This document shows, one piece after another, positions 21,261 to 63,632 of a DNA stretch of 64,000 nt. A model generated the notes under the pieces. The model saw nothing but the letters and a program-made list of their open reading frames with translations. It was not told the origin of the DNA and searched no databases. The translations under genes were made by a program, and so were the position numbers. Every line of letters begins with the position of its first letter. The stretch's first letter is position 1. Source of the stretch: Candidatus Uhrbacteria bacterium (GTDB lineage: Bacteria; Patescibacteriota; Patescibacteriia; UBA9934); contig CALRHE010000001.1 in NCBI GenBank assembly GCA_943359345.1, positions 1,995 to 65,994 of the forward strand, given 5' to 3'.

Positions 21261-21383
21261 TTAGAAATTAGGTGTTAGTCATTAGCAGCTATTAGAAAAG
21301 AGTAATTAGATCCGACCCGTAAGCATCTAATATCTACTTCTCAAATTACTGCTAATATCTAATTTTGTAATGACTATTCCTTA
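21261..21383 (+). repeat. MITE-like palindromic intergenic repeat, copy B (between ftsW stop and murG start)
   Basis: TTAGAAATTA...ATTAGCAGCTATTAGAAAAG...CTGCTAATATCTAATTTTGTAATGACTATTCCTTA; right 23-mer (21349-21371) identical to copies A and C, left TIR partly diverged. Confidence 0.65.
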
Positions 21384-47017: not shown

Positions 47018-50000
47018 TTAGAAGACGAGCGTACCACCGCTAACCGTGGTGTTGTCGATAAGGTAGGAACCCCAGAAGTCGTCAGCGCTGCCGGTATGAC
47101 CGGTAACACCATCGTCCTTCCATAGGAACGAACCTGGGATGCGGAAGATACCGTCAGTTACTTCGTATTCATCCGAGTCTGCATCAGCGTCAGCAGCTTC
47201 CATGACAGAGCCAAGGTAGCCACGAACCACTGTCAGATCATTGGTTGTTACAAGTGTAACCAACATGTATTCCTCATCGCTGTCAGGACTACCGCTAGTG
47301 CCACCGGTTGCGCTGTCATCAGCGTCATAGCTAAGGACATCGCCGATAGCGTATTCCGTACCATCGTCAACGGTGATAGTGGTGTCTGTGAGAGCCACAT
47401 CGGCTTCATTAGAACCGTTGTCATCGTAGATGAATGTCCCCGTGATTGGGTCTGAAGGAATGTCCAAGCGGATGGAGTCATCCGTAGTTGCACTAGCACC
47501 TGTGCTGTCCAGGTAAATAGCGAAGGTCTTGGTTTCACCCTTAGGAATAATCTCTGTTGTTGGCAAACGTAGTTGAACGAAGCCAACATCAGCTTCTGTG
47601 GAATCACAAATTGCGCCGGTGGCCTTCAATAAGGTCCATGGGCTATCAGTGCCAGCCAACATTTCCGCCAGACTGTCGTTCTGATCTGAGTCAGAATCAA
47701 GGTCGAGCGTGGTAGTTGTACCGTCGTCGGTAAGGTTGTAGATATCGAAGTCCTGTGGCGCCATTTCACCGGCGTCAGCTGCGTTATCACAAGCGTTCCA
47801 ATCGTTGGTACCCACGTTGGCGTTGTCAGTGGCATTAACCTTGAAGGTCATGCGGCTCAAGACTACGTCCTCGTTAGAGGCTGCAGCCACGTTGAAACGC
47901 AGAACTTCTGAACGGCCAACCACTGAGCTGCCAGACGGACTAAGCGCTGACAAGGTAACTGTCGGTTTGGACTCACGAACTACGAAAGTATGAATGCCAT
48001 CCGTGGTAACGATATCGTCACCGAGAGCACCTTGATCGTCGTCGTCTAGAGTTGCACCTGAACCAATACCGACAGCCTTATAGTTGTCATCATTGGTGGT
48101 ATCAACGAACAGACCAAGACGTACCTTTTCACCAGACGTAGCTGAACCGCCAGCATCACGAGCAATGAGAGGTACATCAACGAAGACCTCAACATCAGAC
48201 GGCGTGCCAACGCTCACATGCATATCAAGTGTCGAGAACTTAGCCTCGTTACCTGACATAGACACGCTCTTGGTACCCGTAGTGCCATCAGCCTTAGGGT
48301 ATTCAATCGTGACCATCTCAACGTTGTTAGCGTAGTTGGTCGATTCACTTGAAGCTGCATCGTCCTCAGCCTGCTCTTCCGAGAAGGTCAAGGTTTCAAC
48401 GCTGAAAGCTTCGTTAGTACCGGTGAAGCGGAAGGTACCCACATGGTTGTCATCACTTGAAGACAAGATGAAGTCAGCCGAAGGCGTACCTGAACCAGCC
48501 GTTATGGCCAATGAACCGCTATCAAGCAAGTTAACGGAGTTGGTTGAGTCAGTAGCGCCGTTTGGAACGTCACCAAGCACTGAAGCGGCGGCCAAAGTAT
48601 CACCGTCGTCATCTTCAGCAACAACATCTGCATCCTCATCAGCGATATCGAAGGAGAATAGGGCGCGGCCAGAGGTGCTGGTGTTGGCAAAGTTACACTT
48701 TACCGTCAGCAAACCGGTGTTACCAGCCTCAATTTCCCAAACAATATCAGCAAAACGAATAGTCTGACCGTTGCTGGCAGGACCTTCTGGGCCATCAAGC
48801 AAGGTAGCGCCATCGTAGAGAGAACAAGACTCAATGTAATCATTGATGTCAGAGTTGGCATCGCCACCAATCACGTACGTTTCAGCCACGTCTCCGTCAT
48901 CACTGGCATCATCAACGCCGTAAGCGCTGAGGGTGAGATCAGTGATGGTTACGTCTGAAGCATCGTTCACAGCGGCGTTCATAGCCAAAACCGTAACACC
49001 GTCAGTACCGTCAACCGTGGTTACGTCACCAGGACTGCTGGCAACGGAGAACGTCAAGGTAGCTGAACGTGCGGTCTGGTTGTAACCAGTGATGTCAGAG
49101 CCTGGCACAATATCGGCAGTTGCCAAGGCATCGCCGTTAACGTCCTCAACTGACAAGCCACTAATGTCAAGAATGACAACTGCGGTTTCGCCAGAGGTCA
49201 GACCGTTATCAACGTCAGCGGTAACCATCAAGTTGAGGGTTTCACCAGCGGACATTGAGAAGTCATCAGTGAAGTCAATGATCTGAAGAGCGTCTTCAGC
49301 CGCACCAGTCAAGCTGGTTTCGTCTGCAGCGTCATCAGTCACGGTATCAAGTTCAAGTGGACCCATGACCACAGCGCCGGTATCGGCATTAATGATCTTG
49401 ATGTCCTTGAAGTTGGCTTCCGAGCCAGTGTTGATCAAACCGTCATCATCGGTAGTTGCACCACCACCTTCTTGACCTTCAGTCGCATCCGGGGTGGCGT
49501 CACCATCGTCGTCAGCACCAATCTGGATGTCCAGATCCTTGACGACTATATCCTGAGCGGCTGTAACAGAGAAGCTGAAGAACTCTTGATCCTGGCTATC
49601 GATTTGAACATCGCTAGCTGAAGGACCGTTGAACGCGATTGTCAATTCACCACCCACGATGGTGCTGAACGAACAATTGCTAGATGACGAAGTACATGAA
49701 CCACCAGTAGCACCGTAGGTACCGTTGGTAGCAATGTCAACCGTCATACCGAAACCGAAGTCGGTTCCAATAGATAGCACATCCACTGCGTTCTCGATAC
49801 CGACCTTGATGGTGTCAGCATCCTGACCGCCAATGTCAGCCGAAACCGTAAAGATGTTGTTACCACCTTCCTCGATTTCAAATGGTGAGTCAGACAAGTC
49901 AAAGACCACCAGGTCTCCGCCAATGTCCTCTCCCATAGCAAGTTCAGTGGTGCCGTCCCACAACTTGAAGTTGTCATGATCTGAAGCTTGGTCGATGTTC

Positions 50001-51343
50001 AAGGTAACCATCTCGATAGACGCACCTTCGGTGCCGCTAGCGGTGGCCTTGAACATACCAATCTCAGCATCAACAGCGCCAATGGTTGGATCAGCAATGG
50101 TACCGGTCTTGTCAATTTCAAGCGTACCGGAATCAGAACCCGTCAAGGTAAAGGTGTTACCTTCAATCGGGAACGAACCATCAACATCGCCAGAACCCAC
50201 GACATCCGCCTCGGCTGCGATTTCGAAGCCAAAGGTATCAGCAGCGGTCTGAGAAGTTGAGATCGTTACACGCACGGTGTAGGTGTGTTCGTCGCCAGCA
50301 CCAATCTCGAGACCGAGATTAGAGAAGGTGACATCACGGGTAGAAGCGTTGACGGTGCGAGACTCAGTCAAACGCGTATTGCCCTCGTACAGGTAAACAG
50401 CGCTGATGTTGGTAGTTGCACCAGCACCGGTCATGCCGAGCACCAATGAATCGAGAGTTGCATCTTCTGAACCAGCCTCAACATCGAAGCTGAAAACTTC
50501 TACCGAGTTGGAGCCACCAGTTAAGGAGACGCCAGCTGGCATAGAAGAAGCCTCAGAAATCTCAAGATCGCCGACCACTTCGGTCATGCCATCTTCAGTC
50601 TGAGCATCGTCAACCAGGGCGAGCTCTTCGCCGCTGATCTCAGAACCCATGGTGAGAGCACTGTCATCAATATTGCTGCCATCCAAGACGAAGGTGTCCC
50701 AGATGTTGTTGGCAGTCATACCAGCTGCAGTAACTTCACGCATTTCACCATCCCAAGACAAGTAGGTTGCCCCACCCATCTCGTAAACAGCACCCTCAAA
50801 AGCAGTTGCGCTCATGAGAGAAGTCCCCACGGTGTAATCATCGAAGAATACGTCCGGTACGTCGATAGTGTTAGCGGCCCAGTTTGAACCAGCAAGATCC
50901 GTAGCTACGGTCTCGGTTTCAATCCAGTGCAAATCACCGTCGCGGCCTACAGCGTAGACCTTAGCGTCGGAAGTCACCTTAATGAAGTGCGTACCATTAC
51001 GAACGACAACGTTGCCGCCCAGGGTGTAGCCAGCGAGCTCGGTGTCCGAGATCGTCATGACATCATCAAAGTCTGCGTGCCATGAGAAGAAGGTCTTCTC
51101 GTTCGGAAAAGCGTAACGCAAGCCATCGTAGCCCTTGTAGTAAACCGTGCTCAAGGAAGTACCCTTGATCAAATCACCAGCTGAAACAGCTTGTGCGGCT
51201 ACTGGACTAACGAGAGCGGCGGCGCCAATAGAAAAAGCGATCGTCGCAGCTGCAATTGCGGCTGAGAAGACGCGCTTTCCTGTGTCTAATACGTGTTGCA
51301 TAATTACCTGAATCCTTTTTTTCCTCTTGAAGGGTTTCCCCAC
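47018..51343 (-). CDS. Giant secreted cell-surface protein, 1441 aa, Thr/Asp/Gly/Ser-rich (candidate glycosylated surface-layer/adhesin protein)
   Basis: Signal peptide (FSAAIAAATIAFSIGAAALVSPVAAQA), strongly acidic, very high Thr/Ser/Asp/Gly content and beta-rich repeats; strong SD GAGGAAAAAAAGGA upstream; preceded by a long 5' UTR and an ECF sigma/anti-sigma operon. Confidence 0.8.
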   Translation of the reverse strand: MGKPFKRKKRIQVIMQHVLDTGKRVFSAAIAAATIAFSIGAAALVSPVAAQAVSAGDLIKGTSLSTVYYKGYDGLRYAFPNEKTFFSWHADFDDVMTISDTELAGYTLGGNVVVRNGTHFIKVTSDAKVYAVGRDGDLHWIETETVATDLAGSNWAANTIDVPDVFFDDYTVGTSLMSATAFEGAVYEMGGATYLSWDGEMREVTAAGMTANNIWDTFVLDGSNIDDSALTMGSEISGEELALVDDAQTEDGMTEVVGDLEISEASSMPAGVSLTGGSNSVEVFSFDVEAGSEDATLDSLVLGMTGAGATTNISAVYLYEGNTRLTESRTVNASTRDVTFSNLGLEIGAGDEHTYTVRVTISTSQTAADTFGFEIAAEADVVGSGDVDGSFPIEGNTFTLTGSDSGTLEIDKTGTIADPTIGAVDAEIGMFKATASGTEGASIEMVTLNIDQASDHDNFKLWDGTTELAMGEDIGGDLVVFDLSDSPFEIEEGGNNIFTVSADIGGQDADTIKVGIENAVDVLSIGTDFGFGMTVDIATNGTYGATGGSCTSSSSNCSFSTIVGGELTIAFNGPSASDVQIDSQDQEFFSFSVTAAQDIVVKDLDIQIGADDDGDATPDATEGQEGGGATTDDDGLINTGSEANFKDIKIINADTGAVVMGPLELDTVTDDAADETSLTGAAEDALQIIDFTDDFSMSAGETLNLMVTADVDNGLTSGETAVVILDISGLSVEDVNGDALATADIVPGSDITGYNQTARSATLTFSVASSPGDVTTVDGTDGVTVLAMNAAVNDASDVTITDLTLSAYGVDDASDDGDVAETYVIGGDANSDINDYIESCSLYDGATLLDGPEGPASNGQTIRFADIVWEIEAGNTGLLTVKCNFANTSTSGRALFSFDIADEDADVVAEDDDGDTLAAASVLGDVPNGATDSTNSVNLLDSGSLAITAGSGTPSADFILSSSDDNHVGTFRFTGTNEAFSVETLTFSEEQAEDDAASSESTNYANNVEMVTIEYPKADGTTGTKSVSMSGNEAKFSTLDMHVSVGTPSDVEVFVDVPLIARDAGGSATSGEKVRLGLFVDTTNDDNYKAVGIGSGATLDDDDQGALGDDIVTTDGIHTFVVRESKPTVTLSALSPSGSSVVGRSEVLRFNVAAASNEDVVLSRMTFKVNATDNANVGTNDWNACDNAADAGEMAPQDFDIYNLTDDGTTTTLDLDSDSDQNDSLAEMLAGTDSPWTLLKATGAICDSTEADVGFVQLRLPTTEIIPKGETKTFAIYLDSTGASATTDDSIRLDIPSDPITGTFIYDDNGSNEADVALTDTTITVDDGTEYAIGDVLSYDADDSATGGTSGSPDSDEEYMLVTLVTTNDLTVVRGYLGSVMEAADADADSDEYEVTDGIFRIPGSFLWKDDGVTGHTGSADDFWGSYLIDNTTVSGGTLVF

Positions 51344-53606: not shown

Positions 53607-54755
53607 TTATTCAAGTGCTAGCAAACCCTCAGGTACCAGCGTGTGCACGCGGTAGATGGACAAAATTTCAGCCGCGATATCATCCCAATTGAAGGCGTCC
53701 TCTACAAAGGTACGGGCCACATGGCCAAGGCCAGCGGCCTGCATGGGGTCTCGGGCAAGCTCGACAATTTTATCAGCCAGATCCTGAACATCGTTGACCT
53801 TGAAGGTCACACCGTAGTCGCCGACAATCTCCTGGTTCTCAGGAATGTCTGAAGCAATCACGGCCTTGCCATAGCTCATGGCCTCAAGCACCGCAATCGG
53901 TAAGCCCTCGCTCGTTGAAGGGTGGACCACAAAACGGGCACCGGCAAACACAGCTCCAAGTGTCTCACCAGACTGATAGCCAGTCATGACAATCGAGGGG
54001 TCAGAAGCAGCCTGAGCTTCAAGCTGACGAACATAGTCATCAGTGAAGGCCGAACCGCCGACAATGGCAAGCTTCAAGCCCTTAGGCTTAGCAAGTTTCC
54101 AAGCCTCGATCAGCGTGTGAGCCCCCTTGTGAGGAACAAGACGCGATACCATCAGCACATAACCAAAGGGTTCAAGACCAAAAGGTTCGAGCAAAATGGG
54201 GTCAGTCGAAACGCGCTGCGGAGTAATACCGTTTGGAATATACACGGCCGTGCCGTTGTATTCAGTTTTGGCGTACTGCGCGATAGTCTTGCTCACGGCA
54301 ATAGTCGTGTGAGCAAAGGTCAGCGTAGCGCGCTCACCGAGCTTAAGCATGAAGCGAGCTAGCGGTCCCCACTTAGCGTGCCAGCGATCCACGGAGTGGA
54401 AAGTGGTAATCACGGTAGCGCGAGGAGCCAAGATGCGGGGCATCCAAGCCAGCAATGAGGGGCCGACGCCGTGGAAGTGGTAAATATCCGGACGAACAAA
54501 TATGACAGCATGAACAATCGCTATCAAGGTGTGTGTGATAGTGTCAAAGCACTTGGTGTGGAGGCTTGGCAGGCGGACCACCTGAATGCCATTAAACATA
54601 GCAGAACCCACAGTTCGTGGGGTATACCAGCGACGGGCATAAGCAATAACACTATGACCAGCGCGCACCAGACGCGTCGAAAGCTCAGTCACGTGGGTTT
54701 CCACGCCACCAAACTTACCCGGCACGCCCTTTTGTCCAATCATGACAATTTTCAT
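53607..54755 (-). CDS. Glycosyltransferase family 4
   Basis: MKIVMIGQKGVPGKFGGVETHV start (GT4 with bound-sugar-donor N-domain), C-terminal GT1 domain STSEGLPIAVLEAMSYGK. Confidence 0.85.
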   Translation of the reverse strand: MKIVMIGQKGVPGKFGGVETHVTELSTRLVRAGHSVIAYARRWYTPRTVGSAMFNGIQVVRLPSLHTKCFDTITHTLIAIVHAVIFVRPDIYHFHGVGPSLLAWMPRILAPRATVITTFHSVDRWHAKWGPLARFMLKLGERATLTFAHTTIAVSKTIAQYAKTEYNGTAVYIPNGITPQRVSTDPILLEPFGLEPFGYVLMVSRLVPHKGAHTLIEAWKLAKPKGLKLAIVGGSAFTDDYVRQLEAQAASDPSIVMTGYQSGETLGAVFAGARFVVHPSTSEGLPIAVLEAMSYGKAVIASDIPENQEIVGDYGVTFKVNDVQDLADKIVELARDPMQAAGLGHVARTFVEDAFNWDDIAAEILSIYRVHTLVPEGLLALE

Positions 54756-54888
54756 AACCGGCTAGAATACCAAAAAATCCCCATTTTGTCCACCGTTCGA
54801 CAGGCTTGCGGTGGACCCTGAGCGTAGCCGAAAGGGTCAATAAAATTGGCCAAAATATGGCTAGTTTAGACCTGTGTTTAAAGGCCTT

Positions 54889-56124
54889 TTACTTGTGGAT
54901 AACTACACCATCGTAAACCTCAAACAGTTTAGATATGTGCTTATTAGGGTCGGCGTTGGCCTTAGCGTATCGAAACGCCCCCTGCCCCATCCGTTCTAAG
55001 TCCTCAGGGTGTTTTAAGGCCCTTTTAAGCAGAGTGTTTAAATCCTGAATATCTCCAGCCTTAAAGATCAGGCCATTAACACCATCTTTAACCTTTTCAG
55101 GTAAACCACCAGCGTCGCTCACGACGACCGGCGTCCCACAGGCCATAGCCTCGATGGCCACGAGCCCATACGGCTCAGCCCAGCGTGACGGAACCATGAC
55201 TAACTGAACCCTCGCCATCAAGGCCCAAAGTTCTTGACTGCTCAAATAACCCAAGTATTCAAAATTATCTAACCTAGCCTGAGCATCCCGTACCTGAGTT
55301 TCGAGCGGACCGGTGCCGGTCATAAAAAATTTGGTCTTAGGGAAAGTTTCCGCTGCTTGTAAAAATAAATCTACACCTTTGTAAGTCTCTAGCCGTCCAG
55401 AAAATAATATCCCCTCACGAGCAGTCGAGCTGACTGATGGTGGTGCCTCAACGCCTGACAAAAAATTTCCAGCAAACAAGGGCAAGACCGTCATTTTATT
55501 GGCTGGGTAGCCTGCTTTCACGAGCGTCTGCTTCACAAATTCTGACGACGGCAAGTACACATCTATAGCTCGATCATAAAGTTTAAGGGCTTTATGAAAA
55601 CGATAAATTAATTCAAGTGCCAAGGTGGCAATAAATGAATTTTTGATATAACGGCTTCTAGCCACCGTCAGCAGCTTAAGATTTTCTGGCTTGAGTGGGC
55701 GTTGACCGCTCCACAAACCATAATTGGCGCTCACAAGCGCGTAGTCGTGCACGGTCATGACGACTGGAACACACTGGGCCCGACAAGCTGCCAAGACTGA
55801 TGGCGATAAATGTGTGTAGGCATTATGCAGATGCACTACATCCGGCCTGAAGGCTTTTAGCATGGCTTTCATTTTACGCCTGGCCTCAAACGACCATAAG
55901 GCCCGCCCCAATTGTCGAAACATGTCGATCCCATAACCCACGTGCGAGGTGTCGAGTGAGGATACGAAATATTTGTCCCAGGCGCTCGGAAGATTACGTG
56001 GATCGTGCATGGCAAAAATAGCCACGGCGTGACCCGCCTGCTCCTCAAGCCGCATAACATCAAACAGGTAGCGACCTGCGCCGTCATGATCATGGTAGTA
56101 CTTGTGGACGTGGAGAATGCGCAT
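54889..56124 (-). CDS. Glycosyltransferase family 4
   Basis: MRILHVHKYYHDHDGAGRY N-terminus; C-terminal EPYGLVAIEAMACGTPVV. Confidence 0.85.
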   Translation of the reverse strand: MRILHVHKYYHDHDGAGRYLFDVMRLEEQAGHAVAIFAMHDPRNLPSAWDKYFVSSLDTSHVGYGIDMFRQLGRALWSFEARRKMKAMLKAFRPDVVHLHNAYTHLSPSVLAACRAQCVPVVMTVHDYALVSANYGLWSGQRPLKPENLKLLTVARSRYIKNSFIATLALELIYRFHKALKLYDRAIDVYLPSSEFVKQTLVKAGYPANKMTVLPLFAGNFLSGVEAPPSVSSTAREGILFSGRLETYKGVDLFLQAAETFPKTKFFMTGTGPLETQVRDAQARLDNFEYLGYLSSQELWALMARVQLVMVPSRWAEPYGLVAIEAMACGTPVVVSDAGGLPEKVKDGVNGLIFKAGDIQDLNTLLKRALKHPEDLERMGQGAFRYAKANADPNKHISKLFEVYDGVVIHK

Positions 56125-56144
56125 ATCGGCTCACTTTTCCGGGT

Positions 56145-57677
56145 TTACAACACTTTTTCTCGTTGACCAAGAGCGATGACCACGCCCGCCATGGTCCATA
56201 AATATGGGGCTAACGTACGCACTTCAAGGAAGGTGGCTAAACACGCGTTCAGCCCGACCGCTAACATGGCCGCACATACGCCCAGCGCCAGTGCTCGTGT
56301 TTCAGCATCTGACGACTTGTGATACACGCGTAAACAAGCTGCAAACAAAGCTAGGTACAACCATAAATACATGGCCAGCCCCAAGCTGCCGACTTCGCCC
56401 CACAAACTAAACCAGTTGTTATCAATGTAGCCATCAGTTCCGTAAACACCAAAAGGTAAACTCAATTCGTCATACACCTGCGTGTTACCAAGCGCCGCCG
56501 CTGTACCGCCTCCATACATACCCGGACCGTGACCAAAAATCGGTGAGGCCGGTACAACTTCCGTGATGGTCTGCACCACCCAGTACAGTCTACCTAAGCC
56601 GTGATACTCACCTACCCAACGCTCGTAGGAGAAAGCCTCAAAGAAACGATTAGTGATCGACTGATCAGACACATCTACCAACTCACGCACAACCAGTCCT
56701 GTTAGAGCTATATACGACAAGAGCAGCGTGGGAATAATCATCGTAGCCGCGATGACACGTTTGTCGCGTTTGATGAAGGCAGCGATAAACAAAAAACCAA
56801 GTAAAAATCCAAACCAAGCCGAGCGTGAATACGTCAATGCGAGTACAGGTAAGCTAGCCATCAACACCAGCCAAACCCATAAACGATCTTTATCCTTGGT
56901 TGCTCGTTCGTAAATCACGGCCACCATCATCAGCATGATAAAGGCCATAAACGTTCCCAGTTGATCATACCGGCCGAGAGTACCAAACACGCGCTGACCA
57001 GGATCCCAAAACTGAACCGTACCAGCAGTTAATTGGATGTCTCCGAGTGTGTGGCGTTCGCCAGGCAATAAAAAAGTGTCCAAGCGTTCGCCAACAACTA
57101 TCTGAGCTGCACCCAAAAACACCTGGAACAACAAAACTGCGCCCAAGGCCATAAGTACAATTCTCGCCCACCTCTTGCTAGGTGCTAATTGCACGGTCAC
57201 AAAGAACAAAAACATGAAGCGTAAAATCTGGCGCACGCCGAGCACGGCCGGCATAATCGGCAAGAAATTGACAATTACTGAAGCAATCACCGCAAAGAGC
57301 AGAAAAGCAAACGGAACATCAATCGAAGTGCGCTTAAAACGTAATTCACCGGTAATCAACTTCCAGAGCGTAGCGGCGACTAACAAATAAATCAGCAATT
57401 CAGATCCGTACTTGGCATAAACGTATAATTCGTCCGGTATCCACTTTAAAATAAACGGCTCAAAGGGCAAGTATGTAAGTAAAAATGCCAAACTCCAGGT
57501 GGGACGAAAAAACGTAAACACCGCCGCCGTGGTAGCCCCCACCACCGCCACCACTAATCCCGGTGACACAAACACGACTCCCAAGATGGCGGCCGTGAGT
57601 AATAAAAATAATCCTCCCAGTGACCACTTGGCCCGCATTTCAGAGGCGTAATAAATAGAGTGCAGGTTCAAAAGCAT
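56145..57677 (-). CDS. O-antigen ligase/polymerase-family (Wzy_C-like) polytopic membrane protein; candidate O-oligosaccharyltransferase
   Basis: About 12 TM helices with a large extracytoplasmic loop near the C-terminal third. The track's start at 57722 is a GTG inside a terminator hairpin of the neighbouring island gene, so the ATG at 57677 (MLLNLH...) is more plausible. Confidence 0.45.
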   Translation of the reverse strand: MLLNLHSIYYASEMRAKWSLGGLFLLLTAAILGVVFVSPGLVVAVVGATTAAVFTFFRPTWSLAFLLTYLPFEPFILKWIPDELYVYAKYGSELLIYLLVAATLWKLITGELRFKRTSIDVPFAFLLFAVIASVIVNFLPIMPAVLGVRQILRFMFLFFVTVQLAPSKRWARIVLMALGAVLLFQVFLGAAQIVVGERLDTFLLPGERHTLGDIQLTAGTVQFWDPGQRVFGTLGRYDQLGTFMAFIMLMMVAVIYERATKDKDRLWVWLVLMASLPVLALTYSRSAWFGFLLGFLFIAAFIKRDKRVIAATMIIPTLLLSYIALTGLVVRELVDVSDQSITNRFFEAFSYERWVGEYHGLGRLYWVVQTITEVVPASPIFGHGPGMYGGGTAAALGNTQVYDELSLPFGVYGTDGYIDNNWFSLWGEVGSLGLAMYLWLYLALFAACLRVYHKSSDAETRALALGVCAAMLAVGLNACLATFLEVRTLAPYLWTMAGVVIALGQREKVL

Positions 57678-57704
57678 GGCGTCAGTATACCAAAAATGCA
57701 CGAA

Positions 57705-57739
57705 GGCCCAGCCTCTCCCCACGCGGGAGTGACTGGGCC
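57705..57739 (-). terminator. Terminator hairpin at the left edge of the high-GC island
   Basis: GGCCCAG-CCT-CTCCC...GGGAG-TGA-CTGGGCC, followed on the minus strand by a T-rich tract; lies only about 25 nt from the start of the O-antigen-ligase-like gene. Confidence 0.5.
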
Positions 57740-57746
57740 CAAGAAA

Positions 57747-58481
57747 CTACGCTGGCAAGCAGTCGAGGTCGCTGCCATCGCAGTCAAAGTCGACAGGCTC
57801 CGCTTCACATTCGCCAAGCGGGGCTGCGGGGTAGACATCAGCTCGCGTGTCGTTGCAGTCACGCGGATCGTTGTACTCGTCCCCGTCGCCGTTCTGGTCG
57901 GCCAGGATGAAACTCGCCGACGGCTTGTCGCACTGCCGGCTGTCGATAGCCTCGTTCCCGAACAAATCCTCGTCCAGGTCCTGAATCCAGAGCAGCTTGG
58001 CGGTGACATTGCTGTCCCAGTCATCCGGCTGGGCATCACAATCTTCGTCCACGTCATCCGGGTCACAGACCTCGGGAGCGCCAGGATGAACGTTGGCGAG
58101 CACGTCATCACAATCGCCAGGCAAGCTGGCGTCATCGCAAGCAAACTCATGCTCGCAGTAGCCGTCGCCATCGTTGTCGATGACGGTCTGGTCCACGTAC
58201 GGACCGGTGTCCGTATCTGGCGGCGTGGCCGAATCGGTCTCACCCGTGGAACCCGAGTCAACGTACGGCGGCGTGGCCGAATCGGTCTCCTCCGCGGTTC
58301 CCGAGTCAGGGTAAACGTACACAATCTCAGTCGGCATCTCTACTGCCGGCGGCGGCGCACAGCCAGCCAAGGTCAGCCAAATGAAGCCGAAGGGGCTAAG
58401 CAACTTGTTCATGTTTCCTCCAAGGAAAGAACCCACCCCTAGCATAATCCGCAAGCGCAGATCAGGTCTAGGGGTGACCAA
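57747..58481 (-). CDS. Lipoprotein with MopE-type Cys-rich putative metal-binding repeats (high-GC island gene 1)
   Basis: Lipobox LTLAGC after MNKLLSPFGFIW; two repeats of the DxDGDG...DCDD...PGAxExCDxxDxDCD pattern (Pfam Cu-binding_MopE-like, abundant in Myxococcota); codon usage strongly GC3-biased, unlike the rest of the window. Confidence 0.6.
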   Translation of the reverse strand: MVTPRPDLRLRIMLGVGSFLGGNMNKLLSPFGFIWLTLAGCAPPPAVEMPTEIVYVYPDSGTAEETDSATPPYVDSGSTGETDSATPPDTDTGPYVDQTVIDNDGDGYCEHEFACDDASLPGDCDDVLANVHPGAPEVCDPDDVDEDCDAQPDDWDSNVTAKLLWIQDLDEDLFGNEAIDSRQCDKPSASFILADQNGDGDEYNDPRDCNDTRADVYPAAPLGECEAEPVDFDCDGSDLDCLPA

Positions 58482-58561
58482 GCAAGATAATCTAAAAAAC
58501 GCATAAAAGCAAATCGACCCCCATCACCGCGTGAGCGATGTGGGGGTCGAAGAAGAAGACG

Positions 58562-59230
58562 CTACTGCCAGAACTCGTGCTCACACCCGCCCACGCCGTT
58601 GCTGACGGGCGTAGGCTCTGGGCCAGGTTCCCCATCCACGAGCACGGAGAACTCCCCGTGCTCGGTGAAGAGGTTGCCCTCGCAACTCCAGTGCGTGGCG
58701 CCGGCCGCGTCGGTGTAGCTCGCCGAGAGCTCCCAGCGGGAGCCGTCCGGCGTGCACACGTCATAAGCGGCGACCACGTCGTAGTTGACCACGGTAACCG
58801 TCATGCCAACGGGTGAACCCGTGTGAATGCCGGTGACGTACTCGAACCCACCGTACGTGGCCTCGAGCATGCCGGACAAGGTCACCATGACCGTACCGAC
58901 CGGCACGGTGTAGGTGATGGTCACCCGGGACTCGTCGCCCCAGCACTCGTCGTCGGACAGGGCTACGCCGGTATCCTCAGGCTCGGTCGAACCGTGCCCG
59001 GTGGTGACCGGCTCGCCGGCAGTGTCCTCGGGCTCGGTCGGATCGTCGGTGGTGACCGGCTCAGTCGGATCGACCGGCTCGAGTGCACCACCTCCGGGCT
59101 GGCCGAAGGCCGGAGAGTCGGAGCTGTCGCCCCGCTCCGGGAGGGTGGTGACCACCGGCTCGCTGCCTGGGTCGTTGGGCATCCGCTCCACGCCGCACGC
59201 GGCGAGGGTAACGAAAAACATGGAACGCAT
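58562..59230 (-). CDS. Lipoprotein, unknown function (island gene 2); start at the MRSMFFVTLAAC Met
   Basis: Lipobox TLAAC; acidic Pro/Thr/Glu linker then Cys-containing globular domain; terminator-like hairpin CGACCCCCATC...GATGTGGGGGTCG downstream (58505-58545). Confidence 0.55.
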   Translation of the reverse strand: MRSMFFVTLAACGVERMPNDPGSEPVVTTLPERGDSSDSPAFGQPGGGALEPVDPTEPVTTDDPTEPEDTAGEPVTTGHGSTEPEDTGVALSDDECWGDESRVTITYTVPVGTVMVTLSGMLEATYGGFEYVTGIHTGSPVGMTVTVVNYDVVAAYDVCTPDGSRWELSASYTDAAGATHWSCEGNLFTEHGEFSVLVDGEPGPEPTPVSNGVGGCEHEFWQ

Positions 59231-59502
59231 CGTATCCTCCAGGAAAGTCGCAAGACAGGTACTGCCAACCCGAAATTGGGTTATGCGATGCCGTGCCTCA
59301 ATCGGAAAGTTGGGTGCTTTCACGACATACAACTATAACAAAAATTAGCTTAAAAGTCAAGGCGCTATCAGTCAAAAATCAACAAATCATTGAGTTATTT
59401 CAAATAAAATTCATACCTAAACGCAAAGCCGACCCCCAACGCAGAAGCGTAGGAGGTCGGAGAGGCCGTTTAGCGTCCAGAGGGACGCAAGGTGGCCAAG
59501 AC

Positions 59503-60123
59503 CTAGAGGCAGGACTCGTCGGGCGGGGCGATGCCCTGGGTGAGCGGGAGGACAATGCCGTCCCGCACCTCCCACAGGTAGTGGGTGGACTCGCGGCTGC
59601 CCTCGGGACAGCCGGCGCCATCCAGGTGGTGGACGACGTACTGCTCGTTGTCCCAGGACGTGAGCCCCAGACCAACGTCCTGCCAGCCCGCGGCCCCGTA
59701 GGCCTCGAAGCTACCGGCATCGACGGCGACCACCTGGTACAGGCTGTCGCGCATCTGCCGGAAGGCCCAGCCTACGCGGACGTCCTCGACCACGTAGGGC
59801 ACAAGCGGTGCCCACGGATCGAACCAGGTGTTGGCTGCATCCGGCTCGTAGACGCCACCGCCGTAACCCACCAGCCACAGGTTGGTGGTGACGGCCGGCA
59901 AGCCGACGTTGTCGAAGATCACGAGGTACGGCTCGGAGCCGTCCTCGGTACCGAAGCCGAAGCTCTGGTAGGTGTCTTCGACACCGTCGTTGTTGCTGTC
60001 GCCGTCGGGCCCGGTGGGCTCGACCGCTGTCTGCTGCGGCGCGGCGCCGGTGTCGGCGGCGAGGTGACGATCTTCGACGCAGGCACCCATGGTGGCCGCG
60101 ACACAAACGAACAAGGAACGCAT
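59503..60123 (-). CDS. Lipoprotein, unknown function (island gene 3)
   Basis: MRSLFVCVAATMGAC lipobox; chosen over overlapping Arg-rich alternative frames because of the signal peptide. Confidence 0.5.
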   Translation of the reverse strand: MRSLFVCVAATMGACVEDRHLAADTGAAPQQTAVEPTGPDGDSNNDGVEDTYQSFGFGTEDGSEPYLVIFDNVGLPAVTTNLWLVGYGGGVYEPDAANTWFDPWAPLVPYVVEDVRVGWAFRQMRDSLYQVVAVDAGSFEAYGAAGWQDVGLGLTSWDNEQYVVHHLDGAGCPEGSRESTHYLWEVRDGIVLPLTQGIAPPDESCL

Positions 60124-60411
60124 GCTGTCTCCAGTGGCCCGAAGGCCGGTTGATTGTGAGCCGGTAACTACTCATGTTCCAGTCCCGAAGGACGAGACTG
60201 ATACACCGGTGGCTCTGATCCGGCGATGACAGTCTGCTAAGTGACGTAGATAAACTATCTACTATCTACCTACCGAACTATCATCGCTTGACCTTTTATT
60301 AAAGACGGAGGTTGTAAAAGTATTTCAGGGAAGAAGTGTCTGAGCGGGGCAGGTTCCAGGCAGAAGCCATGAAACCCGCCCCACTCACGTTTGATCGGTA
60401 GACCTGTTGGC

Positions 60412-61284
60412 CTACTTGGACCGGCGGCGATCACCGAGTCCGATTCGGAGCTCGGTGTGAAGGCCTCCGGACCAGAAGCGGTCCGGGTCACGCACGAACC
60501 CGCCGTAGCCCACGAAGGGCATGACGAGAACCCGCATCTCCGCTTGGCTCCCACGCTGGGGAACGTCCAGACGGAACATGGGACCCATGCCCAGGTCGCC
60601 GCCGATGTAGCGGGCGGCCCAGGTGTTGTCTTCCACCAGGAGGTCACGCCCCCCGATGTTCAGCTGGGTTCCGAGACCGACTTGGTCGGCGACCATGAGG
60701 CCGGCGTCCAGCCCACCGCCGTAGCTGCGGGAGGTGAGGGACCCGGTCCCGATGACGGCCCTGGCACCAAAGTACGGGGTGCCCTGGGCATCCTCCGCGT
60801 ACATGGTCCAAAGACCCAGCTGGACCTCGCCGCCCCAGCTGACCATGGGGTCAGGGGACAACAGTCCGGCCTGCACCGGCACCTGCCCGACGTTTCCGCC
60901 GGCCAGGAAGCCGATGTGGAAGAGCTCGTTGCCCTTCTCTGGCACTGGTACGGGCGGCGCTGCCACCGGTGCGTGAACGGTGATGTTCCGCACGACCGCT
61001 GCTGGCGTCGGCTCGACGGCCGGAAGCTCGGGTGCGGGCTCGGGCGCGGGTTCCACGACCGGAGTCATGGGTTCCGGCTCGGGCGTCGGCTCAACAGGCA
61101 CAGGGACCTGATCGACAACGGCCGGGGGCACGACAGGCGCTGCCGGTGCGGGCGTCGAGCTGCGCTTGGCGCAGGACCGACAGCCCTCGTCAATCGGTCG
61201 CGGGTCAGGGTTTGTCCAGTCATCAGCTTGCGCCGACACTGGGATCAAGGCCGCAATGGCGGCCAACAGATTGAAAGGACGCAT
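60412..61284 (-). CDS. Secreted protein with Pro-rich linker and Gly-rich C-terminal beta-domain (island gene 4)
   Basis: Signal peptide MRPFNLLAAIAALIPVSAQA; (P-E/V-P)n linker; C-terminal domain with alternating Gly/aromatic pattern ending in F/Y-rich strands (possible beta-barrel). Confidence 0.5.
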   Translation of the reverse strand: MRPFNLLAAIAALIPVSAQADDWTNPDPRPIDEGCRSCAKRSSTPAPAAPVVPPAVVDQVPVPVEPTPEPEPMTPVVEPAPEPAPELPAVEPTPAAVVRNITVHAPVAAPPVPVPEKGNELFHIGFLAGGNVGQVPVQAGLLSPDPMVSWGGEVQLGLWTMYAEDAQGTPYFGARAVIGTGSLTSRSYGGGLDAGLMVADQVGLGTQLNIGGRDLLVEDNTWAARYIGGDLGMGPMFRLDVPQRGSQAEMRVLVMPFVGYGGFVRDPDRFWSGGLHTELRIGLGDRRRSK

Positions 61285-61739
61285 TGGTGTCTCCTATTCA
61301 AGCCTGACGGCTTGGGAATGGGGTGGGCTCGCTTCCGAGTCCCGGTTGTTTTTTTCAGAGCCCGGGACTCGGCGCTCCAAGGGCCTTGCGTTATCCGTCA
61401 TTGGAGGAGGACGACAGATAACTCAAGTGCCCTTGGAAAGTCGATCCCTAGGCTAACTTCACCTGAAAAGAACTGAGTAATCTACCAGATTTTTGCCAAA
61501 AAGTCAAGACCAGGCACGACTGAGAGTAACAAAAAATGGCCTATATTAGCCAATATTACTCATGCAAACAATTCATCCGCAGGCTTTCTTGACGCCCCCT
61601 TCGCTGATTGCTAAAATTCTGCTTACAAAATCCCCTCCGGGGACCCGATGGAACGGTTGTGACGCCTCCTCCTCGTTGCAACTCGTGACCGTCGGGTCTT
61701 CAGAGAGGGTTTTTTGATTGTTTTAAAGTGTATATAGGC

Positions 61740-61864
61740 TTAGAAATTACAAAATTAGATATTAGCAGCTATTAGAGAAGTAGATATTAGACTTCTGACG
61801 GATTGGATCTAATTACTATTTTCTAAGTTCTGCTAATATCTAATTTTGTAATGACTAATCCTTA
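61740..61864 (+). repeat. MITE-like palindromic repeat, copy C (complete; 23-bp perfect terminal inverted repeats)
   Basis: ATTACAAAATTAGATATTAGCAG (61746-61768) is the exact reverse complement of CTGCTAATATCTAATTTTGTAAT (61830-61852); about 60-bp core; overlaps the stop of the CpsC-like gene and lies about 260 nt right of the high-GC island edge. Confidence 0.7.
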
Positions 61865-62506
61865 AACCTCTGTGTGGACTAACTGATGCCTCCGACGCAA
61901 ACGATCTGATTGGATAAATACGAAAGCTGCCCCACCTAAAGCACCCAAGAACAAACCCGACACAGCATTAACTGGAATATTTGGTCGCACTGGATAACGC
62001 GAATTCAAGGGATCATCAACCACTTGTACGGTAATATTTCCGCCAGAGGTATAGGTCCAACCTTGGGTAGTGATTACAAAAGCTACTGCTTGAGCTATCT
62101 CTTGAGCTTGCTCAACATCAACGTGATAAGCCTTAATGGCTAGCAGACCACTGCTCCGTGACACCGAAGCAGAAATAGTTTTTTCCCATTGCTTACGTTC
62201 TTTAATGGGATCGTCTGGAAAATAAGTGTCGTCGATCAGAAAACCTGAATTGATAACCTTGTCAAAAAAAGTCGAAGTATAAACAATGCTAGACAAATCA
62301 TCAGCGATACGTTCAGCCGAACGACTAGCAGTGTAAGCGTCCACCACGCCTAATTCTTGGGTGATCAAAATCCGGGTGGTTGAACTGTATTCAAGAGGTC
62401 GCAAAAGTGATAACAAAACTGCGAGTACCAATCCACACGACGAAAACAAAAGCACAGTTGGCCAGGCCTGTAGGAGTGGTGTTATTTGTGTGTACTTATC
62501 GGTCAT
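61862..62506 (-). CDS. Polysaccharide co-polymerase / chain-length determinant (CpsC/Wzz-like, two TM)
   Basis: N-terminal TM, extracytoplasmic domain, C-terminal TM with the PNIPVNAVSGLFLGALGGAAFVF motif (P-x2-P-x4-G-x-x-LG pattern of Wzz/CpsC proteins). Confidence 0.5.
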   Translation of the reverse strand: MTDKYTQITPLLQAWPTVLLFSSCGLVLAVLLSLLRPLEYSSTTRILITQELGVVDAYTASRSAERIADDLSSIVYTSTFFDKVINSGFLIDDTYFPDDPIKERKQWEKTISASVSRSSGLLAIKAYHVDVEQAQEIAQAVAFVITTQGWTYTSGGNITVQVVDDPLNSRYPVRPNIPVNAVSGLFLGALGGAAFVFIQSDRLRRRHQLVHTEV

Positions 62507-62513
62507 GTTGAGA

Positions 62514-63632
62514 TTAGTATATCAAACTGCTGGCATCAGCGAGCACGACTGAAAGTTCAATCAAGGCTCCACCCCGCAACACGTTCAATCGAACTGTTTG
62601 ACCAGGATCATAAGTAGCTAATAACTCAGCTAAAGATGTATCCGCGGTTATGGCTGCGTCATCTACGGCAGTTATAATGTCATGATTCAAGACTCCGGCC
62701 TCCCCAGCAGGACCCCGGGCTGGCACTGGTAAGCGACCGCTCGGAGCCACAACTAATGCCCCCGCACTCAGGCCCTGACGAAGATCAGGATCAAGATTAT
62801 AAACATCTGACAAATCAATTACATATGCTCCCAAGGCTGCATGCATAACTGTGTTGGCACGCAAAGTTTCCTGAATAAATGCCAAGCCGTGCTGCAACGG
62901 AGTAGCCAAACCATCAGCTGTCATAAAACCCAGCAAGTCACCACTGGCCGAAATCATCGGGCCCGTATAGTCACCGTTTAAAACTAATTTCCAAGCATCA
63001 ACATAATCTTCGGCTGGCTGAGGACCAGACAACAAGCTGTGTTTAACCACTTCAAGCGTGGTTGGCAATAACCCCAGGGCGCCATTCAACACAAACAAGC
63101 TATCACCGCTACGTACGTCTGCACTTGAACCAAAACCAACCGGGGTCAAGTTACTAGCGTGACCCAATTTTATAAGCACAAATGGGGACAGTTCATCGCT
63201 AACTATGTTTTCAATGCCATAACGTTCTCCCCTCACCCAAACCTGATTACTAACGAAGGGATTTTGACCGGCTGAGATTTCATCATAAGTGGTAAGTATC
63301 CAACCGTTGGCACTAACCACTACTCCTACACCTACAGCTTCAACCGGACCCACCCACTTACTGGGTACCGAGCTATCATCAACAGTCTTCATGATTACTG
63401 CCAAACTCCGACTTTGAGTTTCGCGCACTTTAGCTACAGCCTCGGCGTAATCTTGTGGATTGAGATTAGGTTTGCGCGGTTCAAGAGCTGTAAAACCTCT
63501 ATCGCCCAGCAAAGCAGCGGCGTAGCTTTCAAGCGTAGTTGAAGTAATCACACTAGCCAAAACGCCGGCACCAGCACCTACAACGAGTGAGGCCAGTACG
63601 GTAAGCACCGCGGTGCGTTGAGGGTTTTTCAT
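62514..63632 (-). CDS. HtrA/DegP-like trypsin-fold domain plus PDZ protein, apparently lacking catalytic His and Ser (predicted pseudo-protease)
   Basis: N-terminal TM; trypsin-like region aligns GWILTTYDEI (His position substituted) and NGDYTGPMISASGDLLGF to the GNSGGP...NGELIGI block with Ser replaced by Tyr; clear C-terminal PDZ (ALVVAPSG...VRLNVLRGG). Start taken at MKNPQRT (63632) to avoid a 130-nt overlap. Confidence 0.45.
   Translation of the reverse strand: MKNPQRTAVLTVLASLVVGAGAGVLASVITSTTLESYAAALLGDRGFTALEPRKPNLNPQDYAEAVAKVRETQSRSLAVIMKTVDDSSVPSKWVGPVEAVGVGVVVSANGWILTTYDEISAGQNPFVSNQVWVRGERYGIENIVSDELSPFVLIKLGHASNLTPVGFGSSADVRSGDSLFVLNGALGLLPTTLEVVKHSLLSGPQPAEDYVDAWKLVLNGDYTGPMISASGDLLGFMTADGLATPLQHGLAFIQETLRANTVMHAALGAYVIDLSDVYNLDPDLRQGLSAGALVVAPSGRLPVPARGPAGEAGVLNHDIITAVDDAAITADTSLAELLATYDPGQTVRLNVLRGGALIELSVVLADASSLIY

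Follow-up and report, generated by a model that had tools for sequence, protein, structure and literature searches.

A GC-rich, strain-variable cassette of predicted exported proteins in a wzz/wzy slot of an Uhrbacteria-like Patescibacterium

The cassette and its genomic slot

A GC-rich segment identified in the window (the whole stretch of 64,000 nucleotides analysed) is a genuine chromosomal locus of an Uhrbacteria-like Patescibacterium (CPR), situated in a slot between wzz-like and wzy-like genes of a 30-kb envelope-glycan region. Judged from their N-terminal sequences, three of the predicted cassette products are lipoproteins and the fourth is secreted. In every case the slot is filled by a set of genes for exported proteins, and it is a replacement or recombination hotspot whose alleles are under purifying selection. 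Its high GC, which is really a high C3/GC3, is a property of the slot throughout the clade and is maintained, not decaying. Taken as a whole, the account given here is quite probable.

The segment is compositionally aberrant. It is delimited by cumulative-deviation changepoints in GC at 57,697 and 61,390, supported by z-like statistics, composition profiles and the identity mosaic, and it is also a hypervariable block between strains. The GC content is 62.5% within the island and 49.6% in the remaining window; 500-nt windows range from 0.562 to 0.706 inside it, against a background mean of 0.497 (sd 0.026, maximum 0.562). The four ORFs, ORF1 to ORF4, have GC3 values of 0.74, 0.85, 0.87 and 0.79, whereas every other ORF of at least 100 residues in the window lies between 0.38 and 0.66. 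The spacers inside the island (0.47-0.51) are not enriched in GC relative to host intergenic DNA (0.466). The sharp rise in GC and GC3 near 57,700 and the fall at the right, described in an earlier note together with a proposed sliding-window check, are borne out by these values. The right edge, which had been placed near 61,480, needs correction, since the GC-rich coding DNA ends at about 61,390/61,284 and is followed by a promoter and leader of 54% GC (61,285-61,480).

Both anchors of the slot are of host GC and lie on the minus strand. The upstream anchor (61,862-62,506, GC3 0.38) is a Wzz/GNVR-like chain-length-determinant protein that is syntenic in relatives, and the downstream anchor (56,145-57,701, GC3 0.54) is an O-antigen-ligase-like membrane protein with a Wzy_C domain. 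The closest relatives of the latter are found in MAGs of Patescibacteria and Ca. Uhrbacteria, in agreement with the CPR-like host proposed before. A palindromic element (61,736-61,862) separates the stop codon of the wzz-like gene from the island promoter; its arms of 44 nt are 84% complementary, and this copy varies between strains. This element, earlier regarded as MITE-like, is a real inverted repeat, but it is a dispersed repeat of the host because exact copies of its 23-nt arm are also present at 382-404 and 21,349-21,371.

Comparison with two related loci (L002 and L003) reveals an identity mosaic in which divergence is limited to about 57,750-61,900. Among strains that match at 99.7-99.9% in their flanks, the cassette alleles differ by 8-25%, as a mosaic of blocks. 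To the question whether related genomes carry the island, the answer is that related species have the cassette in the same wzz/wzy slot and that varied forms of it occur across the clade. Substitutions in the cassette, polarised by majority-rule singletons and not on a rooted tree, do not decay at the rate expected under neutrality. An excess of GC3 in the slot has been observed in 16 of 16 comparisons, with an ORF-picking rule that favoured high-GC3 frames; when regional GC is measured without such bias, only hosts below about 57% GC show a clear excess.

Flexible islands for envelope components are usually GC-poorer than the genome, whereas the present slot is GC-richer, with an excess that is clade-wide and seemingly actively maintained. 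It also differs in its content of lipoproteins and a stalked barrel in place of glycosyltransferases, and in its host, a CPR episymbiont. With replacement-type flexible ('metagenomic') islands, including O-antigen/glycan islands, the Haloquadratum walsbyi cell-wall island (PMC4535781) and those of Salinibacter (PMC2800850), the slot shares a fixed position between conserved genes, surface-exposed products, atypical composition, the lack of mobility genes and very different alleles or content among near-identical strains. The cassette proteins may form a cell-surface module of the episymbiont, and by analogy with the hypervariable envelope islands of other bacteria, phage or host-specificity pressure would keep this module diverse.

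Origin of the segment

The earlier note had offered two explanations, a recent horizontal acquisition or an assembly/binning chimera. The latter, in which DNA of a high-GC organism would have been joined to a CPR contig, has been rejected and retains a practically negligible probability. The shift in composition is indeed abrupt, and the end of a MEGAHIT contig is no more than about 3-7 kb away. However, host sequence is present on both flanks and host-like spacers alternate with the GC-rich ORFs; independent Logan and MEGAHIT assemblies from other runs repeat the allele and its junctions at 99.8-100% identity, and diverged syntenic copies are found in SPAdes, JGI and GenBank MAG contigs.

A recent, un-ameliorated transfer of a lipoprotein cassette from a high-GC donor outside the CPR (Myxococcota, Actinobacteria or similar) is very improbable. 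It would account for a composition strongly atypical of the host, for a codon use like that of a generic GC-rich genome, and for a MopE-type motif common to proteins that their sources name Myxococcota or Deltaproteobacteria. Against it, the same cassette occurs at the same site in several species, with variants across the clade, and the spacers and promoter are host-like and kept among low-GC hosts; nor do the substitutions decay neutrally. No integrase, adjacent tRNA or flanking direct repeats have been found at the cassette, and there is no phage, plasmid or PHROG match. A check of the taxonomic affinity of the four proteins gave no cassette homologue outside a CPR context in sets of 5.8 and 1.8 billion proteins, nor in phage or plasmid DNA; ORF2 to ORF4 have no detected relatives in such a context, and the non-CPR matches to ORF1 are confined to the motif, 15-27% of the protein.

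Cause of the GC3 excess

At about 30 points, the GC3 excess greatly surpasses the recombination-associated differences reported for bacteria. The leading explanation, put forward tentatively, is nevertheless a recombination-associated GC-ward fixation bias at the hotspot, similar to GC-biased gene conversion (gBGC). As in the gBGC described at recombining bacterial genes by Lassalle et al. 2015 (PMC4450053), GC is higher in recombining genes, the effect is strongest at GC3 and weak in intergenic DNA, and optimal codons do not explain it; the slot differs in that its gain of about +0.3 GC3 over 3.8 kb is seemingly far beyond the genome-wide effects described. The un-enriched spacers of the island fit gBGC only if they are functionally constrained.

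Two other processes have been weighed against this fixation bias. Cassettes from GC-rich members (60-65% GC) of the same CPR clade could have been imported repeatedly into low-GC relatives by homologous recombination via the wzz/wzy anchors, faster than amelioration, which we regard as rather unlikely. The slot has a GC of 57-68%, the same as the genomes of GC-rich members of the clade, in which it is unremarkable; the codon shift of the island correlates with the native genes of these members (r = 0.75), the mosaic alleles show frequent exchange, and horizontal transfer in Patescibacteria is reported to occur mostly within the phylum (PMC12455944). Yet all detected relatives of ORF2 to ORF4 with readable flanks are in low-GC hosts (L011, L034-36, L042/43), cassette divergence between species tracks that of the flanks, and G-ending four-fold codons (GCG, ACG, TCG) stay near host levels, unlike those of GC-rich relatives. 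The promoter, leader and spacers are also low in GC and conserved, so that each ORF border would need its own breakpoint if the genes had been imported. Less probable again is codon adaptation, whereby selection for C-ending codons in extremely highly expressed envelope proteins would have raised C3 and GC3. Host ribosomal-protein genes shift in a like manner (GC3 0.58-0.63 and C3 0.34-0.39, against 0.51 and 0.25), Tyr, Asn, Phe and His are encoded with a strong preference for NNC, the spacers lack enrichment, and the consensus promoters with extended -10, strong SDs, stabiliser-like leader and individual terminators are in keeping with it. But the island shift is much larger than that of the ribosomal proteins and correlates with their bias only at r = 0.50, and at the discriminating codons (GCT, ACT, CAA, GAT, TAT) the island opposes their preference.

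Expression signals

All signals described here are on the minus strand. At least two cassette genes have their own strong consensus promoter and a hairpin ends each of the four genes. The promoter of ORF4 (61,479-61,507) is TTGACT-17-TAGATT with a TG extension; across 7 sequences from about 4 lineages, CTTGACTTTT and TGnTAnnTT do not vary. The promoter of ORF2 (59,332-59,360; TTGACT-17-TATAGT with TG) shares the -35 block CTTGACTTTT, of which these are the only two exact copies in the window.

ORF4 has a structured 5' leader (61,285-61,472) that has been modelled with RNAalifold and matches no Rfam family. It comprises a 26-bp hairpin (61,375-61,438) with an invariant, anti-SD-like apical loop CCUCCUCCA (61,402-61,410) and a second hairpin of 11 bp (61,335-61,372), upstream of the SD AGGAG (61,291-61,295). 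Covariation is evident, as both partners are altered in 14 pairs, compared with 3.3 +/- 1.5 in shuffles (0 of 500) and with 1-3 when the controls were slid. Low-GC hosts share the promoter and the leader in conserved form. This leader, in which the apical CCUCCUCC loop is able to cover the GGAG ribosome-binding site, probably governs the expression of ORF4.

The 3' hairpins have computed folding energies of -28.4 (ORF1, 57,705-57,740), -30.0 (ORF2, 58,494-58,549, with a T-run and intrinsic-terminator-like), -17.0 (ORF3, 59,464-59,497) and -29.6 kcal/mol (ORF4, 60,346-60,382). The ORF1 hairpin abuts the Wzy_C gene, at a distance of 4 nt from its called GTG start (57,701) and 29 nt from the next ATG; the earlier note had given about 25 nt.

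The three lipoproteins

Signal or lipoprotein signal peptides are present on all four minus-strand ORFs with the N-termini quoted earlier, the lipoboxes being LAGC, LAAC and MGAC in ORF1 to ORF3. ORF1 (57,747-58,412) is a lipoprotein of 221 residues, with its start at 58,412 in correction of 58,409. It contains a tandem 16-residue TDSATPP repeat together with Asp/Cys-rich motifs of MopE type, of which one is degenerate. The exact protein is found on 5 contigs and dN/dS is 0.08-0.13; the AF2 model (pLDDT 49) is unusable. Two MopE-like copies had been claimed, of which one is clear: Pfam PF11617 recognises one stretch only, at 22.1 bits and hence below the gathering score of 27, and the ORF1-family profile matches the solved MopE* structure 2VOV (E 5.5e-6).

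Proteins with the PF11617 'putative metal-binding motif' are abundant in Myxococcota. The motif carries no donor signal for ORF1, because multi-repeat PF11617 lipoproteins that pass the Pfam threshold are resident as paralogues in the slot of CPR relatives, and it is no pointer to a Myxococcota origin. ORF1 shares with MopE of Methylococcus capsulatus and PF11617 proteins the DxDGDG...DCDD...PGAxExCDxxDxDCD repeats in an exported protein, and differs in its one clear, sub-threshold repeat and its nature as a 221-residue lipoprotein. Lipoproteins of this Asp/Cys-rich MopE type probably serve as surface modules with Ca2+/metal stabilisation and an anchor in the membrane of the symbiont itself.

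ORF2 (58,562-59,230) is a 222-residue lipoprotein whose Cys is invariant in the family alignment. A Pro/Glu/Thr-rich repeat linker is followed by a C-terminal domain of about 125 residues with 4 conserved Cys. ORF2 has no sequence match in Pfam, NCBIfam, PHROG or PDB and varies most among the cassette genes, with 68-77% amino acid identity and dN/dS of 0.30-0.47 between strains. ORF3 (59,503-60,123; 206 residues), also with an invariant lipobox Cys, has no family or PDB match; it is kept adjoining ORF4 in four relative loci (L009, L011, L034 and L042).

A stalked barrel protein

ORF4 (60,412-61,284, minus strand) is a 290-residue secreted protein with a signal peptide (1-20) ending at a signal-peptidase-I site, AQA/DD, a CxxC motif (35-38) and a spacer at about 43-117 that is Pro-rich here, coiled-coil in sister-species alleles (P0014/P0015) and distant slot proteins, and collagen-like in one distant relative. 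Residues 120-287 (60,424-60,927) are predicted to form a C-terminal 8-stranded β-barrel in one AF2 model from a 6-sequence alignment, the outward-facing side being deduced from composition only. ORF4 may be a stalked anchor, in which a rod-like spacer joins an N-terminal Cys motif to a C-terminal barrel of OmpA/NspA type lying in a lipid layer. An outer membrane is reportedly absent from CPR cells, so the most plausible candidate for this layer would be that of the Gram-negative host. Such a predicted outer-membrane-type barrel would occur in bacteria not supposed to need one; BAM is not known from CPR.

Small 8-stranded outer-membrane barrels (OmpA N-domain, OmpX/Ail, NspA, OmpW and Thermus TtoA) resemble ORF4 in predicted fold, size (about 168 residues), strand number and length, short turns and a Gly-rich, charged interior-type face. 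Unlike them, ORF4 has no terminal aromatic β-signal and no detected sequence link to any OMP family, its barrel is C-terminal behind a long stalk, and its organism belongs to a phylum regarded as monoderm. An unlikely but appreciable alternative is that the barrel is soluble or wall-associated, of the 8-stranded YceI, lipocalin or TbpB-handle type, and would bind a hydrophobic ligand on its stalk. One possible role would then be scavenging of host lipids, which CPR are not known to make.

With regard to the membrane-anchor reading, OmpM and SLH domains have been reported as lost in CPR. ORF4 lacks an SLH domain, having a short Cys motif only, its 8 strands differ from the large porin barrel of OmpM, and homology to OmpM/SlpA-type tethers has not been detected. 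The module order is nevertheless common to both, since these envelope tethers of diderm Terrabacteria (PMC10628300) have an N-terminal wall-binding domain, a coiled-coil stalk and a C-terminal barrel, corresponding in ORF4 to the attachment element, rod-like stalk and barrel, and their coiled-coil is matched in the sister alleles and distant slot proteins.

Composition and encoded proteins of the island

The high-GC island lies in the interval between a Wzz-like gene (61,862-62,506) and a Wzy_C gene (56,145-57,701), and this locus is a resident, clade-wide and hypervariable slot for predicted surface proteins, which has a maintained GC3 excess and encodes an unexpected, predicted stalked barrel of outer-membrane (OM) type. 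The window derives from the ENA metagenome contig ERZ27280223:k141_2173273 (64,756 bp). The sharp jump in GC content that an earlier note had claimed is borne out by changepoint analysis, by GC in 500-nt windows and by the GC3 of the ORFs. Changepoints of GC fall at 57,697 and 61,390; the DNA between them has 62.5% GC and the rest of the window 49.6%, a compositional deviation of the kind by which classical genomic islands are recognised, and this is the only step of its kind within the window. The 500-nt windows of the background have a mean of 0.497 (sd 0.026) and a maximum of 0.562, and those of the island range from 0.562 to 0.706. GC3 is 0.74-0.87 in the island ORFs versus 0.38-0.66 in all the other ORFs of the window of at least 100 aa. 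The third positions of the island are made up of C 0.49, G 0.32, T 0.14 and A 0.05, and those of the host of C 0.25, G 0.26, T 0.32 and A 0.17. The spacers inside the island alternate with the GC-rich ORFs and have a GC content of 0.47-0.51, versus 0.466 for the pooled intergenic DNA of the host.

Four ORFs are encoded on the minus strand. In the order of transcription these are ORF4 (60,412-61,284), with a signal-peptidase-I site AQA/DD, and three lipoproteins, namely ORF3 (59,503-60,123; lipobox MGAC), ORF2 (58,562-59,230; lipobox LAAC) and ORF1 (57,747-58,412, the start being corrected from 58,409; 221 aa, lipobox LAGC). The signal and lipoprotein N-termini described in the earlier note are confirmed as three lipoboxes and one signal-peptidase-I site. 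The cleavage site of ORF4 and the lipobox Cys of ORF2 and of ORF3 are invariant among the homologues. Conservation of the signal peptide and the lipoboxes, together with the location of the genes within a glycan-synthesis region, would fit a localisation at the cell surface.

Genomic context and conservation of the slot

The island is the terminal part of an envelope-glycan region, which extends over about 30 kb and includes genes for GT2, GT4, an epimerase, an S8 subtilase, Wzy_C and the Wzz-like protein. The order of genes around the cassette of exported proteins is HtrA/PDZ, Wzz-like, ORF4, ORF3, ORF2, ORF1, Wzy_C, GT4, GT4, HTH_17, sigma-70 and DUF5667. Just downstream of the sigma-70/DUF5667 pair is an ORF of 1,441 aa with no Pfam match (47,018-51,343, minus), adjoined by the gene of an S8 subtilase that has a signal peptide as well as FG-GAP repeats (44,113-46,197); both proteins are large and exported and belong to the envelope-glycan region.

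For the adjacent Wzy_C protein, the best relatives come from MAGs of Patescibacteria and Candidatus Uhrbacteria, with identities from 74% down to 47%. The Wzz-like, Wzy_C and GT4 genes are syntenic in ten relatives, usually along with HtrA, and the length of the slot in these ten is 2.2-9.0 kb. The slot has a fixed position between conserved core genes, the Wzz-like and Wzy_C genes serving as anchors in all the relatives, and it is filled in every relative with a readable locus, so that the empty site associated with a classical genomic island is not found. A signal-peptide protein is encoded first and lipoproteins follow, with two to six genes depending on the species. In local searches with jackhmmer, ORF4 and ORF3 are connected to proteins of two other loci (L011 and L009), and ORF1 and ORF2 to a large number of slot proteins. 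The entire cassette recurs in diverged form, and in the same context, on contigs L002-L008, L034-L036, L042 and L043, which derive from MEGAHIT, SPAdes, Logan and GenBank metagenome assemblies.

The GC content of the slot is 57-68% irrespective of a host-flank GC of 48-65%, and regional GC shows a clear excess in the slot only where the host is below about 57% GC. The GC3 of the slot is higher than that of the flanks in all 16 loci that could be delimited, by 0.22 on average and mainly at C3, in a comparison where the rule for picking ORFs favours high-GC3 frames. A sister species, with a Wzz-like protein 91% identical (77% at the nucleotide level) and a host GC of about 0.47, has all four of these genes, at a GC3 of 0.79-0.92. 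It follows that the GC excess has outlasted a saturating synonymous divergence of the flanks.

A number of MAGs titled 'uncultured Gammaproteobacteria bacterium' (L015, L016, L018, L020, L022, L024 and L027-L029) also carry a Wzy_C/GT4 locus of the Uhrbacteria type, several of them with Wzz and HtrA. They include a complete chromosome of 1.0 Mb (OZ246408.1). These genomes are almost certainly mislabelled Patescibacteria of the same clade.

Chimera and recent import

The earlier note had offered a choice between a recent horizontal acquisition and an assembly or binning chimera, and this choice is largely wrong. The exact ORF1 protein is present on five contigs. The junction of ORF1 and Wzy_C is spanned by L038, a Logan assembly of ERR3719144 that is 100% identical to the window over 55,862-60,629, by L039 (ERZ27280297; 100% identical over 54,747-58,812) and by L040 (99.84%). 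The interleaving of AT-richer spacers with GC-rich ORFs is not a pattern expected of a join of two genomes. The junction reproduced in other assemblies, the diverged syntenic copies and the host-like spacers together effectively rule out a chimera. Import from a foreign donor would have the compositional deviation in its favour, and the hallmarks of mobility are missing: no integrase or transposase was found among the window ORFs in or beside the island, no tRNA adjoins it (the nearest is about 39 kb away), no direct repeats flank it, and searches of phage and plasmid DNA gave no match to it. The search for the taxonomic affinity of the four proteins did not point to a donor lineage either. 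The matches of ORF1 outside CPR (the Patescibacteria symbionts) cover 15-27% of the protein, which is the motif alone, and searches of 5.8 and 1.84 billion proteins and a metagenome scan detected no relative of ORF2-4 in a non-CPR context. With a GC excess long-standing across species and a diverged cassette at the same locus in many relatives, recent acquisition is not supported either. A sharp GC island of seemingly foreign genes can thus be an old, resident hotspot of recombination, and tools that call HGT from composition or decontaminate MAGs would misclassify an island of this kind or even delete it.

Strain divergence and recombination

Comparison of the window with three contigs (L002, L003 and L004) reveals flanking genes that are 99.7-99.9% identical (dS 0.003-0.04) and island genes that are 75-92% identical (dS 0.15-0.58, dN/dS 0.08-0.47). 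The divergence between strains is confined to about 57,750-61,900. The identity per 100 nt is a mosaic in which blocks of about 100% (60,200-61,000 and 58,400-58,500) alternate with blocks of 64-80%. Such a mosaic is the signature of old alleles at a fixed locus that recombination has shuffled. The hypervariable envelope islands of other prokaryotes likewise have divergent alleles at a fixed locus, and the mosaic alleles and the content of two to six genes are those of a replacement flexible envelope island. The kind of locus is already known, as the flexible envelope island, and the variant described here is new.

A diversity-generating retroelement was considered and rejected, since no RT-like ORF is located near the island, no long pair of direct repeats (TR/VR) occurs in 57,000-62,600, and the alleles differ by indels and in a mosaic of blocks.

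Cause of the GC3 excess

Three explanations of the excess have been weighed, of which GC-biased gene conversion (gBGC) is ranked highest. Polarised synonymous singletons of the island number 64 GC>AT and 34 AT>GC, where about 81:19 is expected of a neutral decay towards the composition of the host (p = 2.5e-4); the same count in the flanks is 14:12. Because the island singletons deviate from the neutral-decay expectation, a GC-ward bias acts at the locus, with an implied equilibrium GC3 of about 0.72. The pattern reported for gBGC is associated with recombining genes, is most marked at GC3 and faint in spacers, and has no relation to optimal codons (PMC4450053). The qualitative GC pattern of the island, at a hotspot of recombination, is as gBGC predicts, and an effect of this size would be exceptional. 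Selection on codons is a possible explanation placed below gBGC. The ribosomal-protein genes of the same species have a weak shift in the same direction (GC3 0.58-0.63), with which the codon shift of the island is correlated at r = 0.50; the correlation with native genes of the GC-rich members of the clade is r = 0.75, and in the discriminating codons the island opposes the preference of the ribosomal proteins. Translational selection as the sole cause has been downgraded by this codon-shift regression. Repeated import from GC-rich relatives, to whose native codon usage the island is thus the closer, is also possible and is likewise ranked below gBGC. If true, the recombination-linked bias at this locus would be an unusually strong example of gBGC among bacteria. 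A block of 3.8 kb that stays about 30 points above the genomic GC3 across species provides a natural test bed for distinguishing gBGC from selection in bacteria.

A second, small patch of high GC (0.61-0.65) has been identified in the same species next to rplT, at 1942-2953 of L002, about 8 kb past the window on the side of the island. It encodes a Cys-rich lipoprotein-like protein (LFSC; GC3 0.83) and a protein of 126 aa (GC3 0.73). By gene coordinates only, the corresponding interval in L036 seems too short to hold the patch. GC3-rich islets of exported proteins may therefore recur in these genomes.

ORF1 and the MopE motif

The MopE-like repeats attributed to ORF1 in the earlier note find partial support, at the level of the family. 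The profile of the ORF1 family (A11) matches the solved MopE* structures 2VOV/2VOW/2VOX (E 5.5e-6, 42 positions). In ORF1 itself, PF11617 (Cu-binding_MopE) matches one stretch with 22.1 bits, under the gathering threshold of 27, and the two repeats claimed are reduced to this one; matches to the orthologues of ORF1 are flagged as weak or faint. Lipoproteins with 2-13 PF11617 repeats (51-398 bits) are common in the slots of the relatives. An AF2 model of ORF1 from an alignment of eight sequences has a mean pLDDT of 49 and is unusable.

Profile searches of PDB with ORF2 and with ORF3 gave nothing significant, and the PHROGs search gave no match. A weak match of ORF2 to the phiSA1p31 family of NCBIfam (E 0.0034), far under the family cutoff, has been disregarded. 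A literature search combining Uhrbacteria and lipoprotein found no papers.

The predicted stalked barrel of ORF4

ORF4 consists of a signal peptide, a CxxC motif, a Pro-rich spacer and a C-terminal domain that is modelled as a closed barrel of eight antiparallel up-and-down strands. Two faces alternate along the strands, one being 53% aliphatic or aromatic and the other 33% Gly and 18% charged; by this composition the former may be the lipid-facing exterior. The predicted fold is like that of the barrels of OmpA, OmpX and NspA in its eight strands, but without sequence membership in a known OMP family. The aromatic C-terminal beta-signal of OMPs is absent from ORF4, which ends in RIGLGDRRRSK. 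In Pfam searches at E up to 10 with six members of the ORF4 family, no match falls in the barrel and only coiled-coil noise is seen, in the two alleles with a coiled-coil stalk (P0014/P0015). Sequence and profile searches of PDB with the barrel gave nothing significant.

The first genes of distant slots encode proteins with an N-terminal Cys motif, a spacer and a C-terminal beta-domain (L024 5317-6390; L025, L029, L031, L014, L033 and L028). Their rod-like spacers vary, being coiled coil, Pro-rich or, in L024, collagen GXY repeats with DUF7151. Those of L025, L031, L033, L028 and L014 are analogous proteins ending in a C-terminal F like that of OMP beta-signals. Alignment by hhalign of the ORF4 barrel with the C-terminal domains of L025, L029 and L031 gave a probability of 0.3%, homology being undetected. 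ORF4 and these distant proteins have a predicted architecture in common, and homology between them is not demonstrable.

CPR are described in the literature as monoderm, without an OM. A far-reaching interpretation, which we regard as unlikely, is that a supposedly monoderm CPR clade devotes a hypervariable locus to stalked barrel proteins of OM type and their partner lipoproteins, with a local recombination-linked bias holding GC3 about 30 points above the genome. The barrel would then either enter the OM of a Gram-negative host, as an anchor or conduit made by the symbiont, or reveal an unrecognised outer lipid layer of CPR. The predicted barrel bears on the question whether any CPR contact or have an outer membrane. 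To our knowledge, little is known beyond pili of how CPR attach to and exploit their hosts, and the slot provides a concrete, clade-wide and fast-diversifying set of candidate attachment proteins.

Promoters, leader and intergenic repeat

ORF4 and ORF2 are preceded by near-consensus promoters that have the block CTTGACTTTT in common, of which the window contains only these two exact copies. A hairpin of -17 to -30 kcal/mol is located 3' of every gene of the cassette. The hairpin of ORF1 (57,705-57,740) ends 4 nt before the GTG at 57,701 that is called as the start of Wzy_C, whose N-terminal HFWYTDA is conserved in L011, and the T-run that would complete a terminator falls within the coding sequence of Wzy_C. 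This overlap suggests that the cassette may be coupled to wzy by read-through or attenuation.

The promoter of ORF4 and its leader of about 190 nt (61,285-61,507, minus) have diverged less between species than ORF4 has, with homologous regions in L002, L008, L009, L011, L034 and L036. The leader comprises a 26-bp hairpin with an invariant apical loop CCUCCUCCA, which is anti-Shine-Dalgarno-like, followed by an 11-bp hairpin; the leader spans 61,285-61,472, and its loop is also given as CCUCCUCC. Covariation is significant, with 14 pairs changed on both sides, versus 3.3 +/- 1.5 in shuffles (0/500) and 1-3 in slid controls. The loop might mask a GGAG ribosome-binding site, or the leader might stabilise the mRNA. 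Rfam searches, run both with the gathering threshold and with E values as high as 1, assigned no family to the leader and gave only sub-threshold miRNA noise on a palindromic repeat.

This palindromic intergenic repeat of about 80-125 nt, with the core ATTACAAAATTAGATATTAGCAG, occurs at 61,736-61,862, 382-404 and 21,349-21,371, giving at least three copies within the 64 kb. The copy adjoining the island varies between strains, and the repeat is a candidate REP-like or MITE-like element.
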